A DNA stretch of 64,000 nt, taken from an uncultured Acidobacteriota bacterium. GTDB lineage: Bacteria; Acidobacteriota; UBA6911. The notes under the pieces are model-generated. The model was given only the letters and a program-made list of their open reading frames with translations, did not search any database and was not told the origin of the DNA. Every line of letters begins with the position of its first letter. Positions within the stretch are counted from its first letter, which is position 1. Positions 17,242 to 52,475 of the stretch are shown here, in pieces. The position numbers and the translations under genes were made by a program. The stretch is from positions 1 through 64,000 of the forward strand of contig CAWEJX010000008.1 of the NCBI GenBank assembly GCA_963809485.1, written 5' to 3'.

Positions 17242-17471
17242 AATTACATCGGTAAATCCCCGGCTCTGCCGGGGGACTCAAAGAGTTTGACAGCTCCGTA
17301 TTTTCAAACGCTTATAAAAGCGCCGACAAACGTCGATTTGTTCGGCGAGGGTCGGAAGCGCCTCATCGGCTTTTGCCCGCGTATGTCAGCGTTCAAGACC
17401 GGCGTAACTAGCCCAACCGCTTTGAGCGGTTCAAATCTTTCAAGCCTCCGGCTTTGTCGGAGGTACCTGAC
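17242..17471 (+). mobile_element. family-A miniature element, copy A2 (internal deletion)
   Basis: GGTAAATCCCCGGCTCTGCCGGGGGACTC ... AAGCCTCCGGCTTTGTCGGAGGTACCTGAC. Confidence 0.85.
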
Positions 17472-32999: not shown

Positions 33000-34412
33000 G
33001 TGACCTTGAGCACAGAGGATATTTCCTATGATGTTGCGGTTATCGGCAGCGGCCCAGGCGGTTATGTCGCGGCCATCAAGGGCGCCCAGCTTGGGCTGAA
33101 AGTGGCGCTGATTGAAAAATATTCAAGGCTGGGAGGGACCTGCCTCAATTGGGGCTGCATTCCCACAAAGTCGCTCCTGATGAACGCGGATCTCTATGAA
33201 AAGGTCATGCAGGGCAAGGAATTCGGCATCATCTGCCAGGACATCAGCCTTGATTTCCGACTGATAAAAGCGCGCAAGGACAAAATCGTCAAGAAGCTGG
33301 TCGCGGGCGTGGATTTTCTCATGAAGAAGAACAAAATCGACGTCCTGCGCGGCAGGGGAAAGCTCATCGCCCCGGGTACAATCCAGGTAGAAGGGGATGC
33401 TACGACGGAAGTGCATGCCCGGAACATAGTGATTGCATCCGGTTCCGAGTCAAAACTGCTGCCCGGCCTTGACCTTGACGGCCGCACCATCCTGACCAAC
33501 AAGGAGATTCTGGATCTGGAGAGTGTGCCGAAATCGCTCCTGATCATTGGATCGGGCGCTCTGGGCATCGAATTCGCCTCGATTTTCTCGCGTTTTGGTT
33601 CCGACGTTACGGTCGTGGAGATGCTTCCGCGCGTTCTTCCGCTCGAGGATGCCGATATCTCCGAAGAAGCGCGCAGGTTGTTGACGAAGAAGCGCATCAA
33701 ATTTCTTACGGATGCGCGTCTGGAGGAAATCGTTGTCCGGGACGGCAACGTGCATGCAACGGTTTCATTGCCGAAGGGAGAGACGGCGGCCATCGTGGCG
33801 GAAAAAGCCCTGATTGCCGTAGGGCGTAAGCCGGTGACCGAAGATTTGGGCCTGGAGAAGCTCCATGTATCCACTTCGCGCGGTTTCATAACGGTGGATA
33901 AAGGCATGCAGACAAACATCCCCGGCATCTACGCAATCGGCGATGTCGTGCCGACACAGGCTCTGGCTCATCTTGCCTCGCATGAGGGGATGCTTGCCAT
34001 GGAAACGATCGCGGGCAGAGCCGCGACGCCCATCAACTACGACCTGGTTCCAAGTTGTGTCTTCTGCCATCCCGAGGTTGCGAGCATCGGGCTCAGCGAA
34101 GCCACGGCGCGTGAAAGGGGATTCGAGGTCGTAACGGCCAGGTTTCCTTTTGCCGCCGTGAGCAAGGCCGCGATTCTCGGGGCCAACGAAGGATTTGTAA
34201 AGATTGTCAGCGAAAAGAAATATAAGCAGATCCTGGGTGTCCACATGATCGGGCCGCAGGTGACCGAGCTGGTTACGGAAGGGGCGGCCTTGATAGGACT
34301 CGAAGCCACCGCGGCCGACCTGTCTCATCTGATCCATCCACACCCCACAGTATCGGAGGGAATCATGGAGGCGGCGCACGCGCTTTATAGCGGGGCTGCC
34401 ATCCATATTTAA
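33000..34412 (+). CDS. lpdA: dihydrolipoyl dehydrogenase
   Basis: GGTCLNWGCIPTK, HPHPTVSE. Confidence 0.95.
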   Translation: MTLSTEDISYDVAVIGSGPGGYVAAIKGAQLGLKVALIEKYSRLGGTCLNWGCIPTKSLLMNADLYEKVMQGKEFGIICQDISLDFRLIKARKDKIVKKLVAGVDFLMKKNKIDVLRGRGKLIAPGTIQVEGDATTEVHARNIVIASGSESKLLPGLDLDGRTILTNKEILDLESVPKSLLIIGSGALGIEFASIFSRFGSDVTVVEMLPRVLPLEDADISEEARRLLTKKRIKFLTDARLEEIVVRDGNVHATVSLPKGETAAIVAEKALIAVGRKPVTEDLGLEKLHVSTSRGFITVDKGMQTNIPGIYAIGDVVPTQALAHLASHEGMLAMETIAGRAATPINYDLVPSCVFCHPEVASIGLSEATARERGFEVVTARFPFAAVSKAAILGANEGFVKIVSEKKYKQILGVHMIGPQVTELVTEGAALIGLEATAADLSHLIHPHPTVSEGIMEAAHALYSGAAIHI

Positions 34413-35286: not shown

Positions 35287-35500
35287 AGTCAGGCACCTCC
35301 GGAAAAGCCGGAAGCTTGAAAGATTGGAACCGCTCAAAGCGGTTGGAGGAGTTACGCTGGTCTTGAACGCTGACTTACGCCGACACTCGCCGAACAAATC
35401 GGCGTTTGTCAGCGCTTTTGTCAGCGTATCTCAGCGTTTCAAAATACGGAGCCGTCAAACTCTATGAGTGCCCCGGCAGAGCCGGGGGGTTACCAATTAT
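35287..35500 (-). mobile_element. family-A miniature element, copy A5 (internal deletion)
   Basis: Both terminal hairpins present; homologous to A6 and A7. Confidence 0.85.
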
Positions 35501-35594
35501 TTGCGAGGTCAGGGCCTGCAAGCTGCAGGATTTGGGCGAATGGCGCAGGGTCCGTACGGACACCGGATGACAAATTCAGGAGGTGCGACATCCC

Positions 35595-36989
35595 ATGGCG
35601 ATTAAGGTATTGATGCCCCAAATGGGCGAATCCGTTTTCGAGGGCACGCTGACGAAGTGGCTGAAAAAGCCGGGCGATGCGGTGGTCCGCGATGAACCGC
35701 TATTTGAGATATCCACCGACAAGGTGGATTCGGAAATCCCCTCTCCAGCATCCGGAATTTTAAGCGAAATTCTGGTCGGTGAAGGCAAAACCATCCAGAT
35801 CAATACCATCTTGGCCATTATCACGGAAGCGGGCGAACAGGAAAAGGCGCCATCGGACTCCGGTGTCACGGCGGAGGCTGCCAAGGCTGCTCCCGCTGCG
35901 GAGCCTGAGAATCTTCCTGAACCGAAAGAAGCCGCGGTTGAGCCCGTGCCTCCCTCGCCGCCCGCAGCCGCGGGCCCGCAATCCGCAGGGCCTGCAATCA
36001 GGGTCCAGGACATCCGGACCTCACCCCTGGTTCGAAAGCTCGCGCGCGAACACAGCCTTGATCTGAGCCAGATCCGCGGAACGGGCCAGGAGGGACGCAT
36101 CACGAAGGACGACGTGCTTCAATATCTGTCCCGAAAAGAGCCGGTACCCGCAGCGGCAGCACTCGAAGTGATACCGCCGCCGGCACAACCTGAGAGCGCG
36201 CTGTCCGGGACGCCCTCCCTGGCCTCTGACGGCATCCCTGCCCCGGAGCCGGAAGCAAAGGCTGCTCCGCCTGCACCTGAGCTGATGCGGTTCATGGGCG
36301 AGTCGCAGACCGAAGCCATGACGCCGATGCGGAAGGCCATCGCCGATCACATGGTTCTGAGCAAGCGAACTTCCGCGCACGTGAACACTTTTTTCGAGGT
36401 GGACATGAGCGCGATCGTGCAGCTGCGCGAGAGCCACAAAGTGGATTTCATGAGACGGGAAGGAATCCCCCTGACCTTCTCTCCGTTTTTCGCAAAGGCT
36501 CTAGTCGATATTGTCCGTGAATTCCCAGTATTCAATGCCTCGGTGTCGGGCGACACCATCCTATACAAAAAACCTGTAAATCTCGGGATTGCCGTGGCGC
36601 TGGATACGGGGCTGATTGTGCCGGTTGTGAAGAACGCTCATCTTAAAAGCTTCACCGGGCTTTCGCTTGCCATGTTCGATCTGGCCGAGCGGGCCCGAAG
36701 CAAAAGACTCAAACCGGATGACGTGCAGAACGGCACCATCAGCATGACCAATCCCGGAAGTTTTGGCGGCCTTTTCAATACGCCCATCATCAGCCAGCCC
36801 CAGGTCGCCATCCTGGGGATCGGGGGGATCGAGAAACGTCCCGTGGTGATTCAGGATGCTATCGCCATCCGTTCCATGGTCTACCTGTCCCTCACTTTTG
36901 ACCACCGCATCATCGATGGGGCCGTTGCGGACCGGTTCATGGCCAGGCTCAAGGAGAGGCTGCAATCCTGGACGCAATGGATTGACTGA
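35595..36989 (+). CDS. 2-oxoacid dehydrogenase E2 (dihydrolipoamide acyltransferase)
   Basis: Lipoyl domain STDKVD, E3-binding domain, FDHRIIDG. Confidence 0.92.
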   Translation: MAIKVLMPQMGESVFEGTLTKWLKKPGDAVVRDEPLFEISTDKVDSEIPSPASGILSEILVGEGKTIQINTILAIITEAGEQEKAPSDSGVTAEAAKAAPAAEPENLPEPKEAAVEPVPPSPPAAAGPQSAGPAIRVQDIRTSPLVRKLAREHSLDLSQIRGTGQEGRITKDDVLQYLSRKEPVPAAAALEVIPPPAQPESALSGTPSLASDGIPAPEPEAKAAPPAPELMRFMGESQTEAMTPMRKAIADHMVLSKRTSAHVNTFFEVDMSAIVQLRESHKVDFMRREGIPLTFSPFFAKALVDIVREFPVFNASVSGDTILYKKPVNLGIAVALDTGLIVPVVKNAHLKSFTGLSLAMFDLAERARSKRLKPDDVQNGTISMTNPGSFGGLFNTPIISQPQVAILGIGGIEKRPVVIQDAIAIRSMVYLSLTFDHRIIDGAVADRFMARLKERLQSWTQWID

Positions 36990-37079
36990 CCGGTGTGACT
37001 GCAAAGCCCGGGATCTCAGGCCGGACGATGCTCCATTGAAACACGCGGACAGGGTCGCTTAAATTCAAAAGTGAAGGCG

Positions 37080-37473
37080 AGTCCGGCAGCTCCGGCAAAG
37101 CCGGAGGCTTGAAAGATTTAAACCGCTCAAAGCGGTTGGGCTAGTTGCGCCGGTCTTGAACGCTGACTTACGCGGGCAAAAGCCGATGAGGCGCTTCCGA
37201 TCCCCGCAGGGCCCAGCGCTCCGCGCTGGACAGTTTTCTGCGGCGGCACTGTGGCAAGAGCGCCGTGCGGCAAGCAGATGAAGGGTATGAGAAACCGGGC
37301 GTTTGCCACAGTGCCGCCGCAGAAAACTGCATCGGAAGCGCCTCATCGGCTTTTGCTCGCCGACCCTCGCCGAACAAATCGGCGTTTGTCCGCGCATTTA
37401 TCAGCGTTTCAAAATATGGAGCTGTCAAACTCTTTGAGTCCCCCGGCAGAGCCGGGGATTTACAAATGTAATC
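37080..37473 (-). mobile_element. family-A miniature element, full-length copy A6
   Basis: Terminal hairpins plus nested perfect inverted repeats 37176-37201/37331-37356 and 37231-37257/37303-37329. Confidence 0.88.
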
Positions 37474-37642
37474 ACTGCTTTCGCGGGTTGCCGTATCTGC
37501 GATGAAATCCGGCGCCGCATTGCGCGGCGGCCGGGAGGTTCAATTTTCCGAGGAATTTCTTGAAAAACCGGGCACCGGCAGATATGGTAGCCGTCAAAAA
37601 GCAATCAACGGTTTGGCCGCTCCGCGGTTTCGGAGACGAACT

Positions 37643-38032
37643 ATGCTATTGAGCTTTGCAGGCGTTCTGGTTTTCCTGGTGGTGGGTTTTATCATCCTGG
37701 CGCTCGTGCTTTGGTTTTCGCGCCTCATCCAGCCTAAAGGCACGTCCGGGCCCGATAAATACATTCCCTACGAATGCGGCGAAATCCCGGAAGGTTCCGC
37801 CTGGATACAGTTCAACATCCGCTTTTATGTTTTCGCTTTGATATTCATCATCTTTGACGTGGAGATCATCTGCCTTCTGCCCTGGGCAGTGGTTTTCCGC
37901 AAACTTGGGAGTCTCGCCTTCATCGAGGGGCTTATTTTCATCGGCATCCTTGCCGTGGGGCTGGCGTATGTCTGGAAGAAGGGCGATCTGGAATGGATTA
38001 AGGCCGGAGATCTCGAATCGCTGCGGAAATAG
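37643..38032 (+). CDS. nuoA: NADH-quinone oxidoreductase subunit A
   Basis: PYECG, FIIFDVE, WKKGDLEW. Confidence 0.93.
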   Translation: MLLSFAGVLVFLVVGFIILALVLWFSRLIQPKGTSGPDKYIPYECGEIPEGSAWIQFNIRFYVFALIFIIFDVEIICLLPWAVVFRKLGSLAFIEGLIFIGILAVGLAYVWKKGDLEWIKAGDLESLRK

Positions 38033-38079
38033 GTTTTTGGAAATACGGCATTCGCGTTTGATGGGGAAGGGAAACCGGA

Positions 38080-38583
38080 ATGGGTGTCATCGAGGGCAAA
38101 TTTGAAGAAAATGTGGTGATCACGTCCCTGGACTGGATTTTCAACTGGGCCCGCTCCAATTCGCCCTGGCCCCTGTCCTTCGGCCTGGCCTGCTGCGCCA
38201 TCGAGATGATGGCGACAGGCGCAGCGAGGTACGATCTGGCGCGATTCGGGGCGGAGGTATTCCGCGGCTCCCCGCGCCAGGCGGATATAATGATCGTGGC
38301 CGGGACGGTATCCCTGAAGATGGCGTCGAGGCTTAAAAGGCTTTACGACCAGATGGCTTCGCCGAAATACGTTATCTCCATGGGCAGCTGCGCCAACAAA
38401 GGAGGCCCGTACTGGAAGTACGGATATCATGTCCTGAAAGGCGTGGATTTGGTGGTGCCGGTGGACGTGTATGTGCCGGGGTGCCCGCCGCGGCCCGAAT
38501 CCTTGATAGAAGGGATCCTTAAACTGCAGCAAAAAATCAGAAACGAAACGATCGCCAAAAAAGGCAAGGAAGGTACTGCATGA
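38080..38583 (+). CDS. nuoB: NADH-quinone oxidoreductase subunit B (paralog 2)
   Basis: [18 protein letters not shown]. Confidence 0.95.
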
Positions 38584-39047
38584 TCCCGCAGGAAATCGCT
38601 GCGCTGCTGGCCGAATCTTTCGGCGGCAAGGTGCTGGAATCCAATCCGGATGCCCTCATGGCCTGGAGCGCGGTGGAGCCGTCTTCGCTGTTCGAGGTTT
38701 GCCGGTTTTTTCGCACGGACAGCCGTCTCGATATGGACCACCTTGAGCTGCTGGGCGGGGCCGATTACAAGGACCGCATCGAGGTGGTGTATATCCTTTA
38801 TTCCATGAAGCACCACCACCGCTACACGATAAAATGCCGCCTTCCCCGGCAGGCTCCCGCCGTGCAGACCGTCGAATCGTTGTGGAGCGTCGCCAACTGG
38901 CACGAGCGGGAGGCCTACGATATGTTCGGAATTGTGTTTGAAGGGCACAGCGATCTGCGCAGGATCCTTTGCCCGGACGATTGGGAAGGGTACCCGCTGC
39001 GCAAAGATTATGTGCTCCCCACAAGCTATCACGACATGCCGGTTTAG
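38580..39047 (+). CDS. nuoC: NADH-quinone oxidoreductase subunit C
   Basis: [18 protein letters not shown]. Confidence 0.95.
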
Positions 39048-39057
39048 GAGAGGATAG

Positions 39058-40179
39058 ATGGACGCATCATATAGCGGCGAGGTCATGACGCTGAACATGG
39101 GGCCGCAGCACCCTTCGACGCACGGAGTCCTGCGTCTCGAGCTGAAAACGGACGGCGAAATCGTCGCCGATGCCATTCCGCACATCGGGTATCTCCACCG
39201 TTGTTTTGAAAAACACGCGGAGAATATTGAATACCCCGGGATTATTCCCTTCACGGACAGGATGGACTACTGTGCGGCTATGAATATGGAGCTCGGGTAC
39301 GTCCTTGCGATCGAGAAGCTCATGGATATACGGATCAACAACCGGGTGCGTTGCCTGCGGATTATCATGGCCGAACTGGGGCGTATCGCCAGCCACCTGA
39401 TTGCGGCCGGCACTTACGGCAACGACATCGGATCTTTTACTCCATTCATGTGGTGCTTCCGGGACCGCGAAACGATTCTGGATCTGTTCGAGGAAACCTG
39501 TGGCGCGCGCCTGCTTTACAACTACAACTGGATTGGCGGCTTGATGTACGACGTCAATCCCGGATTCGAAAAAAAGGTGCTCGAGTTCCTGGATTATTTC
39601 GAGCCCCAGGTCGACAACCTCAACCGGTTGCTTTCCGATAACGTCATATTTATCCGCCGCACGGCGCACGTGGGTATTCTTCCTCCCGAGCTGGCCATCA
39701 GCTACGGAGTAACGGGACCCAACCTTCGCGGCAGCGGAGTCGCTTTCGACGTGCGCAGGGACGAGCCGTACCTCGGCTATGAAGATTTCGATTTCGATGT
39801 GGCTGTGGGCAAAGCGGATTACGGGCCGATGGGATCCTGTTGGGACCGCTACATGGTCCGCATCCGCGAGGTCAAGGAAAGCTGCAAGATAGTGCGCCAG
39901 GCTATCGCCAGGCTGACGCCCGGTGACGTCCACGAATCCGTGCCCAAGCGCGTGAAACCTCCCGCTGGAGAGATCTATATGCGCACGGAATGCCCCCGCG
40001 GGGAGCTGGGCTACTATATTGTCAGCGACGGCAGCACCAAACCCTACCGGGTCAAGGTGAAATCTCCTTGCTTCACGGTAATGAGCGCCTTCAGGGAAGT
40101 GAGCAGGGGAGCCATGATTGCCGACATCATCGCAATCCTCGGCAGTTTTGACATCGTGCTGGGTGAAATCGACCGCTAG
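39058..40179 (+). CDS. nuoD: NADH-quinone oxidoreductase subunit D (paralog 2)
   Basis: [20 protein letters not shown]. Confidence 0.95.
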
Positions 40180-40192
40180 CAGAGGAAGCCTG

Positions 40193-41242
40193 ATGGAATC
40201 TGTTGTCCGGATTTTGCAGTGGATACCGAAATACGATCATCTCCCGGAGCTTGCGCGCGTCGCGATTCCCCTCCTGATAAGCTGCCTGCTCGTGTTCGCG
40301 CTGCTGGCCCTGATGGTTCTTTTCCTGGTGTGGCTCGAGAGAAAGGTTTCGGCGCATGTACAGGACCGCCTGGGGCCGATGGTGGTGGGAGGATGGCATG
40401 GCTGGGCGCAAACGATTGCCGACGCGCTTAAGCTCCTGCTGAAGGAGGATATCGTCCCGGCGTCCACGGACAGGATGCTGTTCAAGACGGCGCCTTTCGT
40501 CGTGTTCCTCGGCGCCTTCACCGCCTATGTGGTCGTGCCGTTCGGCGCCTCGTCGTTTGTCACCGATTTGAACATCGGGATTCTCTATATCGTCGCGGCC
40601 TCCAGCCTTTCCGTCGTGGGCATCATCATGGCGGGGTGGGCATCCAACAACAAGTATTCGCTTTACGGAGGCATGCGCGCGGCGGCCCAGATCATCAGCT
40701 ATGAAATTCCTGCCGCCATGGCCATTATGACGGTGGTCATCTATGCGGGAAGCCTGTCGATGGTGGATATCGTGAACGCCCAGAAGGGCGGAATCCAGAA
40801 CTGGTTCATTTTCCGCAATCCCTTTGTCTTTCTGGGATTCATAATTTATTTCATCGCGTCTCTGGCCGAAGTCAACCGCACCCCTTTTGACATTCCCGAG
40901 GCCGAGTCGGAGCTTGTGGCCGGATTCCACACCGAATACTCCGGGATGCGTTTCGCGTTTTTCTTCCTGGCCGAATATGCCAATATGTATCTCGTTGCGG
41001 CCGTCGCCACCGCGCTTTTTCTGGGCGGGTGGACCCAGGTCCTGCCGGCGTCTGTGGCTCCGCAACTTCTGCCGGGACCGATTTTATTCCTGCTGAAATC
41101 GCTAGCGCTCATATTTCTTCAGATGTGGGTGCGCTGGTCGCTGCCGCGTCTGCGGGTCGACCAACTGATGTATCTGAGCTGGAAAATATTGTTGCCCATT
41201 TCGCTGGTGCTGATACTGGGCGTCGGATGGCTGGCCGTATAA
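40193..41242 (+). CDS. nuoH: NADH-quinone oxidoreductase subunit H
   Basis: ERK...[22 protein letters not shown]. Confidence 0.95.
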
Positions 41243-41266
41243 AGACTGGAGTCTCAGGGGACTTTT

Positions 41267-41755
41267 ATGTGGACGTACTTCAAGGATCTCGGTCTTGGCA
41301 TTATGACCGTCCTGAATTCTATGGCGGTTGCCTGCCGCCATTTTTTCACTCCAGCCGTCACCCTTCAGTACCCAGCGGTCAAATGGACGATGCCCGAGCG
41401 ATCCAGGGCGAGGCTTTTCAACAGGATCGAGGACTGCATCGGCTGCAGCCAATGCGCGCGGGTCTGTCCGACCAGCTGCATCACGATAAAAACTGAAAAG
41501 CGCGGCAGGGACGAACCCGAATTATTCGCGTCCAACGGAATGGCGATCAAGATGCGCACCTTTCTGTACGACATCGACACTTCGCTCTGCTGTTACTGCG
41601 GGCTGTGCACGTTCGCCTGCCCGACGCATTGCCTGGTTATGACGACCGATTATGAGAACTCCGTCTACGACAAGAACGAGCATATCTTCCACTTTGCCAA
41701 AGAAAAGCCGGCCGCCGGCGGCGCACTCAAAGATGCGCCTGCGGTTCAGGCCTGA
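41267..41755 (+). CDS. nuoI: NADH-quinone oxidoreductase subunit I (paralog 2)
   Basis: VTLQYP, two CxxCxxCxxxCP motifs. Confidence 0.9.
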   Translation: MWTYFKDLGLGIMTVLNSMAVACRHFFTPAVTLQYPAVKWTMPERSRARLFNRIEDCIGCSQCARVCPTSCITIKTEKRGRDEPELFASNGMAIKMRTFLYDIDTSLCCYCGLCTFACPTHCLVMTTDYENSVYDKNEHIFHFAKEKPAAGGALKDAPAVQA

Positions 41756-41763
41756 AACCGCCT

Positions 41764-42270
41764 ATGGAAAATAGTCTGATTGTCCCGATTGTTTTTTATT
41801 TTTTCGCCGCCATAACCATCGGCTCGGCCATGATTGTGGTTTTTGCGCGGAACCTCATACATTCCGCGTTCGCGCTGCTGTTTACGTTCGGCGGCGTCGC
41901 TGCGCTTTATGCTTTCATAGGCGCCGATTTTCTCGCAGCGACCCAGATGGTGATTTATGTCGGCGGGATTCTGGTGCTGTTGCTGTTCGGCGTCATGCTC
42001 ACCCATAAGCTGTACGACCTGAATCTTAAAGCGGAGACCTACCAGGTCTGGCCGGGCACCGCAGCCGTGCTGGTGGTGTTTGCTTTGCTGGTGACCTTCA
42101 TGCTGCGGACCCGCTGGTTCAGCGGCGGAAGGGGCGGGGATGATCCGACGACGGCCGCTATCGGAGAACTCTTCATGCAGGACTACATACTCCCATTCGA
42201 GGTTGCGTCGATTCTTCTGCTGATCGCTTTGATCGGCGCGGCCATGATTGTCAGGAGAAGACCCGAATGA
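41764..42270 (+). CDS. nuoJ: NADH-quinone oxidoreductase subunit J
   Basis: Q..IYVGGI.VL.LFGVML, PFE..S..LL.A. Confidence 0.93.
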   Translation: MENSLIVPIVFYFFAAITIGSAMIVVFARNLIHSAFALLFTFGGVAALYAFIGADFLAATQMVIYVGGILVLLLFGVMLTHKLYDLNLKAETYQVWPGTAAVLVVFALLVTFMLRTRWFSGGRGGDDPTTAAIGELFMQDYILPFEVASILLLIALIGAAMIVRRRPE

Positions 42271-42572
42271 TTGGACTCAGCCATTTCCTCATTGTCAGCG
42301 CAACGCTCTTCTGCCTGGGGCTTCTGGCGGTTTTTACGCGCAAAAATGCGGTGAACGTCCTTATGGGGGTCGAGCTGATTCTGAATTCCGCCAACCTCAA
42401 TCTGATCGCCTTTTCCAAATACTCCGCGGCAAAGATCGACGGCCAGGTTTTCGCCGCCTTCGTCATAGTGGTGGCCGCAGCCGAGGTGGCGGTCGCTTTG
42501 GCCATCGTGCTGACCATGTACCGGATTATCAAATCGGTCAATCTGGATCGGGCGGATACCTTGAAGGGGTAG
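42267..42572 (+). CDS. nuoK: NADH-quinone oxidoreductase subunit K
   Basis: ELILN, AAAEVAVALA. Confidence 0.93.
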   Translation: MIGLSHFLIVSATLFCLGLLAVFTRKNAVNVLMGVELILNSANLNLIAFSKYSAAKIDGQVFAAFVIVVAAAEVAVALAIVLTMYRIIKSVNLDRADTLKG

Positions 42573-42574
42573 TC

Positions 42575-44068
42575 ATGAATCCACAGATTCTCATGGATCT
42601 CAAAAAATTCTATCCCGAGCTGGCATTGAGCGTCGCGCTCCTTTGTGTCGTGATCGGCGATCTGGCCTTCCCGCGTTTTCATAAAAAAATCACATTCCTC
42701 ATCGCGGCGCTGGGCCTGGTGCTGGCTTTCCTCGCGAGCCTTCCGCTTTTCCAGGAACCTTCGGGCACCCTGTTTTTCGGCGTCCTGGCGCTGGACCCGG
42801 CGGCTGTTTTTTTCAAATGTTTCCTGATCCTCACTTCGTTCCTGATTCTCCTGGCGACTCCGGGATCCGTGGAACTCGGACAGAGGCGACTGGGCGAATT
42901 TTACTCCCTCCTGCTTGGAGTCACGCTCGGCCTTCTCCTGCTGGCCGCCAGCGAAGATATGCTGATGCTGTATCTGTCGCTGGAAATGGTTTCAATCGGA
43001 AGCTACATCATGGTCGGCTATCTGAAAAATGACCGGCAATCCAACGAAGCCGCGTTGAAGTACCTGCTGTTCGGCGCCGTATCTTCCGGCTGCATGCTTT
43101 ATGGATTCACGCTGTTCTACGGTCTGACAGGCACTACCAAGCTCATGGGCATGCGCGAGGTCCTGACCTCGGGCGGTGCGGCCGGGGACAACGCCGTGAT
43201 GCTCCTGATCGCCTCGACGGCAGTGCTCGCCGGATTCGGCTTTAAAACAGCGGCCGTGCCCTTTCATTTCTGGTGCCCGGATGTTTACACGGGCGCGCCG
43301 ACCCCGGTGACGGCGTTTTTAAGCGTCGCCCCCAAGGCGGCCGGATTCGCCATCCTGGTGAGATTTTTCTTCACCGGCCTGGCGCTCCCATCGGCCGATA
43401 CAGGCTCCTGGACCCCGCTGAGCTCCATCGACTGGCGGCTTCTCGTTCTGGTGTTGTCGATCCTGACAATGACGCTCGGCAACATTGCCGCACTGCGCCA
43501 GGAAAATATGAAACGCCTGCTGGCTTATTCATCCATTGCGCATGCCGGATATATCCTGATGGGAGTGGCGGTGCTGACCTCCCAGGGCATACAGTCGATC
43601 CTGATTTACCTGATCACCTACCTCTTCATGAATCTGGGGGCATTCCTGGTCGTCATCGAAATCTACAACCGAACCGGAAGCTTCGACCTCAAGGATTACC
43701 GGGGGCTTTACAGGCGCTCTCCGTTCCTGTCCATTGCCATGACAATTTTCATGCTTTCGCTGATGGGGATTCCGCCTCTGGCCGGGTTTTTCGGCAAATT
43801 ATACGTATTCGGCGCAGCCGTCAATGCGAACCTTGCGTGGTTCGCGGTTGTAGGGGCTTTAAACAGCGTTATTGCCGTCTATTATTACGCGCGGGTGATC
43901 AAAACCATGATCATCGAAGCCCAGGAAGACATGACCAGGATTGTCACACCCTGGACGGGTCTCGTCCTGGTCTGGTTCATGTTGCTCCCGACGGTAGGGC
44001 TCATGCTGTTCTGGAGTCAGATCCAGCAGCTGACCCTGACATCCATGAAGTTGTTCCTCGGGAATTGA
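42575..44068 (+). CDS. nuoN: NADH-quinone oxidoreductase subunit N
   Basis: EAALKY, FK..AVPFHFW.PDVY.GAP, KRLLAYSSIAH. Confidence 0.93.
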   Translation: MNPQILMDLKKFYPELALSVALLCVVIGDLAFPRFHKKITFLIAALGLVLAFLASLPLFQEPSGTLFFGVLALDPAAVFFKCFLILTSFLILLATPGSVELGQRRLGEFYSLLLGVTLGLLLLAASEDMLMLYLSLEMVSIGSYIMVGYLKNDRQSNEAALKYLLFGAVSSGCMLYGFTLFYGLTGTTKLMGMREVLTSGGAAGDNAVMLLIASTAVLAGFGFKTAAVPFHFWCPDVYTGAPTPVTAFLSVAPKAAGFAILVRFFFTGLALPSADTGSWTPLSSIDWRLLVLVLSILTMTLGNIAALRQENMKRLLAYSSIAHAGYILMGVAVLTSQGIQSILIYLITYLFMNLGAFLVVIEIYNRTGSFDLKDYRGLYRRSPFLSIAMTIFMLSLMGIPPLAGFFGKLYVFGAAVNANLAWFAVVGALNSVIAVYYYARVIKTMIIEAQEDMTRIVTPWTGLVLVWFMLLPTVGLMLFWSQIQQLTLTSMKLFLGN

Positions 44069-44354
44069 TTTTATGGGAGGTCCGCCGTCTCTGCCGGCGA
44101 GGCAATCTCGGTTTGACAAATGGCGGAGCATGCCTTTTCGCCGGCGTTCTGAATATCGAATTTCGAATGTCGAACCGCAGAAGCTATGGCAGGACCTCGA
44201 AATTCATTATTCTGCATTCGACATTCTGTGGTTCAAATAGCTTTCAGGACGGTTATTGCGGGTGAAACCGGCTTAATCCTTTATCGGTCGCGATCAGGCC
44301 CCTTTGAGGGGCCAGCAGCCGTTAAGCCCTGAGCTCTGCCGGAGGATACCTGGC
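44066..44354 (+). mobile_element. family-B miniature element, best-preserved copy
   Basis: Starts at the nuoN stop (TGA-T); left hairpin CCGCCGTCTCTGCCGGCG..GTTTGACA; TCGAAT palindrome; GGCCCCTTTGAGGGGCC; right end ..GCTCTGCCGGAGGATACCTGGC. Confidence 0.72.
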
Positions 44355-44366
44355 TTGAATCTCGAA

Positions 44367-45413
44367 TCAATCAGAGATATAGCGGCCTGTGTGCAGGTAA
44401 TTCATTACGACGGTAGTTCCCAGGGCTGCAAGGGATGCCAGACTGCAGCCTTCCGCCTCCGGAGCCAGGGATAGCCCCAATTCGCGGCTACGGAGGAAAA
44501 ATCGTCCAATCACAGGGGCAACAACTTTTTCGCGGGCGCCTGTCCAGCGGGAGATGGTCTCGACAAGAAAATGCCGGTTTTTCCTTATGAGGTCCTTGGC
44601 AAGAACGGTTCTCCTGTGGCCGTTGGATGCCGAAGAAAATATCCGGCTCAAATCGTCATCATAAAGCCCCAATGCTTTGTCCTTGAACTGATCCAGGGTT
44701 TCTCCGTAATACTCGATCAACGTATAGGTCTTCGAGTGGTAGGGGGAGTCTAGAGCTCCGGCGGTCACGCGAGGCCGCTTGTCTCTCAAACTGACCATGA
44801 GCCGGTCGACGTACTCCAGCTTTTTCAGCGACGGCCATTTTTTGTAAGTATTGCGCCAATTCGAACGCGGCGTCAGCCAGACGGCAAAAGTTTCCGCAAA
44901 ATCCTCATCCGGATGAGCCTGCGCATAATACTTCGGTTCTCCCTGGCTCTTTACGTAACTCCGGCTGAAGGGATTAAACTTAAACTTGAAGTTTGTCGGG
45001 TATGTAGCGTAAAAATCACCAAAATACTCGCGCCATTCAGGCTCATTATAAAGCATGTAGGCATAGTTTATGGCGTGGCCTGTTTCGTGGCGGAGCAGGA
45101 TCATGAGATCGCGCTTGTCGTAGGTTGCATATCCCATCTCCCGCTCTATCCTGATCAGTCTGTTATCAGCCAGGTGGAATGGAATGCCGATAATGGGAAC
45201 TCGGTCCGGACACCCCCATTCGTCGCCGGCACAGGCGAAATAATAAGCAGGCTTGAACGAGAGTTTCTTGGATTCAAGTTCCGAATAAAGCTTTTGGATA
45301 CAACGGAATAGCAGGGTCTGTTCGAATTCGAGAGGCAGGTCGCACACCCGCGTGTTCAGCAGTGTGTACCTTTCTGTCTCCCAGTTTAATTCAAGTTGAA
45401 GCTTCGTGGCCAT
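44367..45413 (-). CDS. putative zinc-binding metallopeptidase
   Basis: LRHETGHA (HExxH) and YAQAHPDEDFAETFAVWL. Confidence 0.82.
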   Translation of the reverse strand: MATKLQLELNWETERYTLLNTRVCDLPLEFEQTLLFRCIQKLYSELESKKLSFKPAYYFACAGDEWGCPDRVPIIGIPFHLADNRLIRIEREMGYATYDKRDLMILLRHETGHAINYAYMLYNEPEWREYFGDFYATYPTNFKFKFNPFSRSYVKSQGEPKYYAQAHPDEDFAETFAVWLTPRSNWRNTYKKWPSLKKLEYVDRLMVSLRDKRPRVTAGALDSPYHSKTYTLIEYYGETLDQFKDKALGLYDDDLSRIFSSASNGHRRTVLAKDLIRKNRHFLVETISRWTGAREKVVAPVIGRFFLRSRELGLSLAPEAEGCSLASLAALGTTVVMNYLHTGRYISD

Positions 45414-45619
45414 CGCAATGACTGCACTGAAAAGTCCTTTGATCCCGGTTAGGGAATCCTCGGCTGTCAAGCGGTGCCTGCATCATGCTGACCCCGCGCC
45501 GGACCGGCAAAAGGATTATATTCGATAGAATGGCCCTCGTGAAGAGGGTTTTATATAAATATATATTTGGCTATCCCATTGAAAACAAACGTGATAGATA
45601 TCAATGAAAACAGCCGAAG

Positions 45620-45976
45620 CTATTTGGGCTTGTCGGACGCAGAAATGCTGATTTCAGTTGCCGATCCGTCAATCGGAATGCCGTTGCGGCTTCCTTTGCC
45701 AAGCTCCAGCTTTACCTGGATAATGGAGAAGGCTTTAAGGTCCTTGAATTCCGCCGCTTTCCCATCGATCGTAATCTTGGCCGAGGAGGCATCCAGCAGA
45801 TATTTGGTTTTGCCCGGAATCTGGGAGACAAGTATCAGCTTCTCCGAAGCGGATATGGAGAGCAGCCGGTATGCGCCGGTTTCCACTGCCAGGCAAAGCG
45901 AAATCAAACCAAGCAGACACAAAGCCACGCCAATTTTTCGGGTTGTGAGAATCGCGACATCGGCCCTACCGAACAT
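45620..45976 (-). CDS. small exported hypothetical protein
   Basis: Hydrophobic N-terminus and beta-rich domain; start uncertain. Confidence 0.55.
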   Translation of the reverse strand: MFGRADVAILTTRKIGVALCLLGLISLCLAVETGAYRLLSISASEKLILVSQIPGKTKYLLDASSAKITIDGKAAEFKDLKAFSIIQVKLELGKGSRNGIPIDGSATEISISASDKPK

Positions 45977-46095
45977 CCTATGCCAGCTCCGCGAAAGTAA
46001 ATTACACTGATTGGAGTGTCATTCGCACTGTAAGGTTCAAAAATCCGGCGCACGTCCTCCGCTGGAACCTATTATAGCCATAATCCGTTTTTCTC

Positions 46096-46495
46096 ATAAT
46101 TCTATTGGTAAACCCATGGCTCTGCCGTGGGACTCATAGAGTTTGACAGCTGCGTATTTTGAAACGCTGAGATACGCTGACAAAAGCGCTGACAAACGAT
46201 TTGTTCGGCGAGGGTCGGCGAGCAAAAGCCGATGAGGCGCTTCCGATGGAGTTTTCTGCGGCGGCACTGTGGCAAGCGCCGTGCGGCAAGGAGATGGAGG
46301 GTATGTGAAAGCGGGCGTTTGCCACAGTGCCGCCGCAGAAAACTGTCCAGCGCGGAGCGCTGGCCCCTGCGGGGATCGGAAGCGCCTCATCGGCTTTTGC
46401 CCGCGTAAGTCAGCGTTCAAGACCAGCGTAACTCCTCCAACCGCTTTGAGCGGCTCCAATCTTTCAATCCTCGAGCTTTGCCGGAGGCACCTGAC
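46096..46495 (+). mobile_element. family-A miniature element, full-length copy A7
   Basis: TAAT-TCTATTGGTAAA left end through GCCGGAGGCACCTGAC right end; nested inverted repeats as in A6. Confidence 0.88.
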
Positions 46496-48103: not shown

Positions 48104-48190
48104 GCCGAAGTGGCGGAATTGGCAGACGCGCTAGGTTCAGGGTCTAGTGGGCTTAAGCTCGTGGGGGTTCGAGTCCCCCCTTCGGCACCA
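48104..48190 (+). tRNA. tRNA-Leu(CAG)
   Basis: GCCGAAG/CTTCGGC acceptor stem, CTAGG-TTCAGGG-TCTAG anticodon arm, long variable arm, GTTCGAG, ACCA. Confidence 0.95.
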
Positions 48191-52244: not shown

Positions 52245-52475
52245 GATTACATTGGTAAATCCCCGGCTCTGCCGGGGAACTCAAAGAGTTTGACAGCTCC
52301 GGATTTTGAAACGCTGATAAAAGCGCTGACAAACGCCGATTTGTTCGGCGGGGATCGGAAGCGCCTCATCGGCTTTTGCCCGCGTAGGTCAGCGTTCAAG
52401 ACCGGCGTAACTCATCCAACCGCTTTGAGCGGTTCAAATCTTTCAAGCCTCCGGCTTTGCCGGAGGCACCTGACT
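52245..52475 (+). mobile_element. family-A miniature element, copy A8 (internal deletion)
   Basis: GATTACATTGGTAAATCCCCGGCTCTGCCGGGG ... CAAGCCTCCGGCTTTGCCGGAGGCACCTGAC. Confidence 0.86.

Follow-up and report, generated by a model that had tools for sequence, protein, structure and literature searches.

A flipped hairpin loop in a mobile repeat of an uncultured Acidobacteriota genome is very probably an inherited subfamily state and not a switch

The 64,000-nucleotide stretch analyzed here (the window) is contig C8:1-64000 of G000, an uncultured Acidobacteriota genome from soil or wetland. Pairwise comparison revealed that it contains two inverted copies, A6 and A7, of a single hairpin-rich repeat of about 395 bp, and that the central loop is flipped in one of them relative to the remainder of the element. 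Chance does not account for this flip, which is genuine and belongs to a class of hairpin mutation already described; transposition has since multiplied it. The two loop states, designated S (the state of A6) and F (flipped, the state of A7), very probably represent inherited, locus-fixed states of two subfamilies that go back to one or very few old inversions spread by transposition, and not the states of a switch.

A6 (37080..37473, + strand) and A7 (46096..46495, - strand) are full-length copies, and in the orientation of the element they have the same left part, asymmetric side arm, and perfect inner stem. In A6, which has its core in the common S state, the inner stem is formed by two arms of 27 nt, the left arm (37231..37257) and the right arm as its perfect complement (37303..37329). 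They enclose the loop or core of 45 nt (37258..37302; 43 nt in the family consensus) in S orientation. The left arm of the outer stem (37172..37201) pairs with the right arm (37331..37360), and a side arm of two mini-hairpins (37202-37230) is present on the 5' side only; all these parts were read on the + strand. In A7, the inner stem arms of 26 nt (46250..46275 and 46319..46344) enclose a core of 43 nt (46276..46318, - strand) that is reverse-complemented relative to the element. An earlier note made from the sequence of the window had described the two copies as oppositely oriented, and this was borne out by their ends and asymmetric side arms, which are reverse complements. The note was also right that the loop reads in the same way on the + strand in both copies (39 of 43 positions are identical by our count) and that perfect inverted repeats of 26-27 bp surround the core (27 bp in A6, 26 bp in A7). 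Because the loops match on the + strand, the loop of A7 is flipped relative to the rest of its element. When folded as single-stranded DNA, the inner hairpins of A6 and A7 reached -43.1 and -39.3 kcal/mol (z scores of -10.2 and -10.6), and none of 200 shuffled sequences folded as well. Taken as a whole, the element folds into a series of stacked hairpins (-138 kcal/mol, z score of -13.9).

Copies of the repeat were collected across G000 (6.04 Mb, 21 contigs, 95.67% complete, 7.32% contamination) by BLAST with A6 and with separate probes. The core was present in 107 copies, each of which was oriented by its left part, right part, and side arm. The tabulation of core orientation that the earlier note had proposed yielded 76 copies in the S state and 31 copies in the F state. 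All four combinations of element strand and core strand were populated (+/+ 62, +/- 17, -/+ 14, and -/- 14), which does away with the idea that the core keeps one absolute strand. Control of the core orientation by the direction of replication or by the absolute strand was likewise considered and rejected: orientation simply follows the subfamily.

For the sequence analyses, 101 of the 107 copies could be used (73 S and 28 F), and the stems of the other six were too degenerate. Written in S orientation, the loop has GGAGGTTAT in most F copies and GAAGGGTAT in S copies, and a few F loops are intermediate (A7: GGAGGGTAT) or S-like. Two positions distinguish the F consensus from the S consensus once the latter is reverse-complemented. 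The F-type loop sequence was found in none of the 73 S-oriented copies, and thus no back-flip was seen. The private divergence of S and F copies was alike, with a median of 3.0% in both.

The flanks were then analyzed with the stem and loop excised. Eight flank columns were strongly associated with the orientation of the core; at column 82, for instance, a T was present in 19 of 28 F copies versus 1 of 73 S copies (Fisher p 8e-13). The F flank markers are perfectly nested, such that individual copies carry 0, 3, 4, 5, 6, 7 or 8 of them, and the loop substitutions run in parallel. F loops with four or fewer markers are S-type and have no diagnostic substitution, the first diagnostic substitution sets in at 5 markers, and the second occurs in copies with 5-8 markers, all but 3 of which have 6-8. 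A7 is an intermediate member of the F subfamily, with 7 of the 8 flank markers and 1 of the 2 F-type loop substitutions. A maximum-likelihood tree calculated from the flanks only required a minimum of 8 changes of orientation, compared to 24.8 when labels were shuffled (0 of 500 shuffles as low). In an approximately unbiased (AU) test, the grouping of all 28 F copies into one clade was not rejected (p-AU 0.735), and the tree constrained in this way exceeded the quick free tree by 23 log-likelihood units. The earlier note had set one orientation per locus that tracks the phylogeny of the copies against a switch, and the former is what we found.

The tree has a total length of about 8.8 substitutions per site; for 1-8 events, this corresponds to a rate of inversion per locus of about 0.1-0.9 times the per-site substitution rate. 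The switches of phase variation operate many orders of magnitude above such a rate.

Orientation was also followed at loci that occur more than once. G006, the nearest sampled relative, has flanks that are 85-90% identical and also carries the family. At the one orthologous locus at which the two genomes were compared for orientation (C20:675428 in G000, flanks about 90% identical), the core was S in both. Three complete central hairpins were assembled in G006, all of them S, and two more were cut by contig ends. A scan with an exact-stem pattern recovered three further copies on metagenome contigs of other organisms, again all S. One metagenome-assembled genome of an uncultured Acidobacteriota added three copies that duplicate those of G006; they were counted once together with the latter because they have the same loops and the same matches in G000. 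Therefore, all six copies recovered outside of G000 were S. Within G000, a duplicated locus (C21:178765/C7:2549, 98.6% identical over 1.7 kb) was F in both places. A second G006 copy is orthologous to C21:109040-109206 of G000. In the G000 copy, a deletion between direct repeats of 7-8 nt has cut the element off within the inner arm, and the G006 counterpart (locus L016 1381-2018) carries a nested insertion of about 245 bp, another small element with terminal inverted repeats.

One pair of copies looked like a single locus in two states: C7:2549 is F, C20:241868 is S, and their flank is shared at 100% identity. This interpretation was rejected in favor of a hybrid contig end or a rearrangement. 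Within C7:1-4117, the first 2.3 kb match the sequence beside the C20:241868 copy at 100% identity and are followed by an element with a left part and F core identical to C21:178765, and then by sequence that is 98.6% identical to the end of C21 (C21:178607-180334). The start of C7 may thus have been rearranged through the repeat, or this end of the contig is chimeric or a mixture of strains. As the F part at C7:2549 is the C21 copy, the pair provides no evidence for switching.

Several observations bear on the way in which the loop was inverted. A G/A mismatch directly inside the 26-bp arms changes sides together with the loop, while the arms are unchanged, and therefore the break points lie within the 26-bp arms. 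Compensated changes of the inner stem arms were found at 6 positions, 5 of them independent, compared to about 47 uncompensated changes (101 copies; position 1, which is unpaired in the consensus, was left out of this count). From the frequency of single changes, we estimated that about 0.07 coincident complementary arm pairs are expected by chance. In the outer stem, 2 compensated and 31 uncompensated changes were counted in 104 copies. In three copies, the stem-adjacent G/A mismatch had been turned into a perfect pair. Among 226 matched copies, the AAA triloop of the small hairpin at the left end is replaced by TTT in 7 and by CTT in 2. The copies with TTT are spread over three or more marker backgrounds and over several deletion architectures. 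Four other small hairpins showed no loop inversion.

The compensated arm changes and the inversion of AAA to TTT in a second hairpin loop make it likely that the flip was caused by template switching or by arm-to-arm recombination at the hairpin. A model of quasi-palindrome mutation by Ripley reportedly describes events of this type. We infer the molecular route of the inversion, as well as its having happened once or very few times, as follows. The core is the loop of a long perfect DNA hairpin in a non-coding mobile repeat. In one S-form copy, the stretch enclosed by the 26-bp arms would have become its own reverse complement. The cause may have been a template switch within the molecule as the hairpin was replicated, or the two arms may have undergone recombination or conversion with each other. 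The flipped copy would have stayed competent for transposition and would have founded the F subfamily, which presumably gained further substitutions while making new copies, A7 among them; A6 belongs to the unflipped S majority. Inversion by template switching at the long hairpin had been one of two explanations offered in the earlier note. The anatomy, the arm compensation, the mismatch correction, and the TTT loops all fit this explanation, although the event proved to be rare and old. In the literature, PMC8794818 names loop inversion and multi-base compensatory changes as outcomes of template switching, and PMC8604942 names the homogenization of inverted-repeat arms and the inversion of spacers. 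None of three phrases for spacer inversion occurs in PMC5941160, and a search for bacterial repeats with flipped loops returned nothing specific.

A number of points weigh against an inherited state that arose once or very few times. The flank-only tree is poorly resolved, with only 2 of 98 inner branches well supported. The well-supported branches force only 1 change of orientation, and hence there may have been anything from 1 to about 8 events. None of the F flank markers is present in three F copies, located at two loci (C21:178765/C7:2549 and C20:587644); these copies could derive from inversions of their own instead of being early descendants of the F founder. Two S copies (C4:135098 and C8:511226) carry F-type markers in the right flank and require an extra event. 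Because their left markers and loops are S-type, we read them as probable recombinants between copies and not as back-flips. The six copies left out because of degenerate stems comprised 3 F and 3 S copies of the 107. The orientation at each locus is known from assembled contigs only, as no public run contains the locus; in searches of Logan contigs of public runs, the best shares of locus words were 0.17-0.28, which equals the share of the element in the query, and none reached half. Strand-changing joints at the core were not listed for these runs, a negative that carries no weight as evidence. Lastly, template switching, recombination within the hairpin, and ectopic conversion between copies that align antiparallel by way of their palindromic arms all predict the same product.

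The tree and the marker-less copies are also what would be expected if the loop had been flipped in place many times independently (at least five), by template switching or recombination of the arms, with orientation only loosely inherited. The 8 changes required by the free tree, the F copies without F flank markers at two loci, and the recurrent AAA-to-TTT inversion in the small left-end hairpin would all suit such a history. However, the F markers are nested, F-type loops are missing from all 73 S copies, one clade of all F copies withstood the AU test and outscored the free tree, and orientation has been kept at the orthologous and the duplicated loci. Taken together, we regard many independent flips as unlikely. 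Errors of the assembly, which could have misoriented the loop in some copies, were also considered, because perfect hairpins with 26-bp arms are hard for short reads and because this assembly has problems with strains and duplications (contamination of 7.32%, the hybrid contig end at C7). The F and S copies differ, however, by inherited substitutions in both loop and flanks, which random errors of orientation could not have produced. A misassembled hairpin, which the earlier note had named as a possible refutation of its observation, is therefore exceedingly improbable as the source of the F copies.

A mobile invertible switch was the other explanation of the earlier note. According to this explanation, a recombinase or another dedicated activity would flip the core often and would thereby show or hide a Shine-Dalgarno (SD)-like motif with start codons, or a promoter. 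Perfect inverted repeats do surround a segment with AAGGAG and two ATGs, both orientations are common in the genome, and 4 serine and 33 tyrosine recombinase matches are present elsewhere in G000. Nevertheless, orientation is tied to substitutions in the loop and the flanks, clusters on the flank-only tree, and is compatible with a single origin, and the implied rate is at or below that of substitution per site. In agreement with the statement of the earlier note that the window encodes no invertase, neither serine (PF00239) nor tyrosine (PF00589) recombinases, the only two families scanned, had a match in C8:1-64000; the nearest tyrosine recombinase match lies at C8:67681-68199. To our knowledge, the invertases that have been described turn segments far longer than 43 bp. 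The SD-like run and the ATGs noted earlier are indeed present in the S loop, where they open a frame of 66 codons that extends to a TAA at the end of the element, but the frame has no coding signal. Its substitutions are distributed 113/142/142 over the codon positions and are synonymous in 29% of cases versus 28% expected at random, and the frame was rejected as a coding sequence. Moreover, mobility is retained by the short copies that lack the hairpin, and these are no fewer than the core-bearing copies. These results make an active switch very improbable. It can also be envisaged that flipping of the long hairpin goes on slowly in present-day populations without any recombinase, that the loci are mixtures of orientations, and that the exposed loop, with AAGGAG and the ATGs on one of its strands, gives the element an orientation-dependent output. 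We consider this a long shot; if it were true, the F subfamily would represent no more than the fixed part of a continuing process.

The repeat family as a whole comprises about 260 copies in G000 (267 left-end hits and 270 right-end hits, each of at least 50 nt) and makes up about 1% of the genome. The copies without a core are shorter derivatives that fall into several deletion classes, and most of them lack the entire central hairpin. Three such short copies are located in the window, at 35287..35497 (+ strand, without the whole central hairpin), 52245..52475 (- strand), and 17243..17471 (- strand). The orthologous G006 sites of all four family copies between window positions 33001 and 53000, namely A6, A7, and the short copies at 35287 and 52245, are empty, and the empty A6 site was also found on one metagenome contig. 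These empty sites identify true insertions and show that the element was active after the split of G000 and G006. Both the S and the F form were multiplied and the hairpin-less copies are mobile; therefore, neither the loop nor its orientation is needed for mobility.

Copies start with (A/T)GTCAGG and end with GGGTTTACCAAT(GT/AG)AATTA. No terminal inverted repeats were found at these ends, and no conservation of the flanks beyond them. Similar hairpins with an 8-bp stem and a 3-nt loop are present on the same strand close to both ends, at a distance of about 10 nt on the left and about 16 nt on the right. At the 3 usable junctions, no target duplication was observed. The X3 metagenome contig, which has the A6 site without the insertion, likewise contains the last 4 bases of A6 (AATC), and these may thus belong to the target and not to the element. 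The empty site at C12 in G006 could not be used to define the ends because of extra indels on both sides. The empty A7 site in G006 retains 9 of the 11 bases of the conserved right-end motif, which suggested that this 11-nt motif might be the target of insertion. This possibility is doubtful, as it was raised by that one empty site and the motif occurs near chance level outside of elements: our pattern gave about 57 hits not flanked by an element versus about 22 expected, several of the 57 being in fact element-associated, next to 132 element-associated hits. The two variants of the motif follow the subfamilies. The orientation of the element appeared biased against the local GC skew (63 copies versus 19, with 25 assigned to neither side), the skew itself being noisy. 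The orientation of copies relative to genes was confounded when crude open reading frame (ORF) calls were used, with 100 of 229 right ends inside a called ORF, and was not used. A permissive Rfam scan of the element gave only hairpin matches far below threshold.

Further features of the family were seen in passing. A copy around position 66732 of C4 is an extreme deletion derivative in which the left-end hairpin nearly abuts the CAATGTAATTA right-end motif. Near the right end of the element, there are three direct TCAGCG(C/T)TT repeats, and one inverted copy is located in the left part (consensus positions of about 309-340, which are about 37390-37415 in A6, and about 83-88, respectively); the C21/C7 copy lacks 22 nt here. 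These repeats may be protein-binding sites. Wetland and soil metagenome contigs (X1, X2, X3, and X14) aligned to window positions 36900-37650 covered the ends of the element at summed depths of thousands, and the central hairpin at depths from about zero (X1) to about a thousand; these values are sums over contigs and not copy numbers. The pattern fits a situation in which short forms are commoner in the environment.

In the window, A6 is flanked on one side by a gene for the E2 subunit of a 2-oxoacid dehydrogenase (35583-36989) and on the other by the gene that opens a NADH dehydrogenase (nuo) cluster (from 37502), and the elements between 33000 and 44068 occupy intergenic gaps among genes of core metabolism. 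At 44066-44354, there is an insertion of about 287 bp that belongs to a different repeat family. The orthologous G006 site has 2 nt in its place, and copies with 77% identity are present elsewhere in G006 (C47 and C32). A tRNA gene at 48104-48187 was the sole Rfam match in the window at the gathering threshold.

The family is of more interest than the flip, because it makes up about 1% of the genome, was active after the split from G006, and has no identifiable transposase. A classical MITE (miniature inverted-repeat transposable element) was ruled out, given that neither terminal inverted repeats nor, at the usable junctions, target-site duplications were found, and a search of the literature on MITEs of Acidobacteria returned nothing specific. 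The closest comparison is with PATEs, which are transposase-less derivatives of IS200/IS605 (the term is used in PMC7290912, PMC4810608, and PMC10055086). The likeness includes the absence of terminal inverted repeats, the small same-strand hairpins near both ends, the lack of a clear target duplication at the few usable junctions, and the presence/absence polymorphism between species; the apparent bias of orientation against the noisy local GC skew may be a further common trait. The difference is that no Y1 transposase found here shares the ends of the element. At the four Y1 transposase (PF01797) matches in G000, the flanks share only chance matches of 10-12 nt with the element, and no hairpin like its end hairpins was found there; nor was a TnpB domain found in this 95.67% complete genome. 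The anatomy is thus compatible with a PATE, whereas the defining link to a transposase is lacking.

The flip itself can be compared with three kinds of small inversions. Like invertons, it involves inverted repeats around a segment that is found in two orientations, but in the present case no recombinase is nearby, orientation follows the phylogeny of the copies, and the segment is only 43 nt long. The repeat family offers a clean natural example of one hairpin-loop inversion that was copied to about 30 loci by transposition and, at first sight, mimics an invertible switch. It calls for caution in scans for invertons, in that two orientations among the copies of a repeat count as evidence of switching only if they occur at the same locus. 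With quasi-palindrome inversions, in which short-range template switching inverts the loop of a hairpin, it shares a spacer that is exactly reverse-complemented, breaks inside the arms, compensated arm changes, and a corrected mismatch. Here, however, the loop (43 nt) and the arms (26 bp) are long, and the event was multiplied to about 30 loci within a transposable repeat. In the non-coding DNA of plastids, minute hairpin inversions are described as recurrent and homoplasious among species. They share with the present case that small inversions bounded by inverted repeats result in two orientations among related sequences, but in this family, inheritance within a single repeat subfamily accounts for most or all of the flipped copies. 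Subfamilies of non-autonomous repeats are explained for Alu by a master-copy model. The nested diagnostic changes along one productive lineage are shared with Alu, with the difference that one of the diagnostic changes described here is an inversion and not a point substitution.

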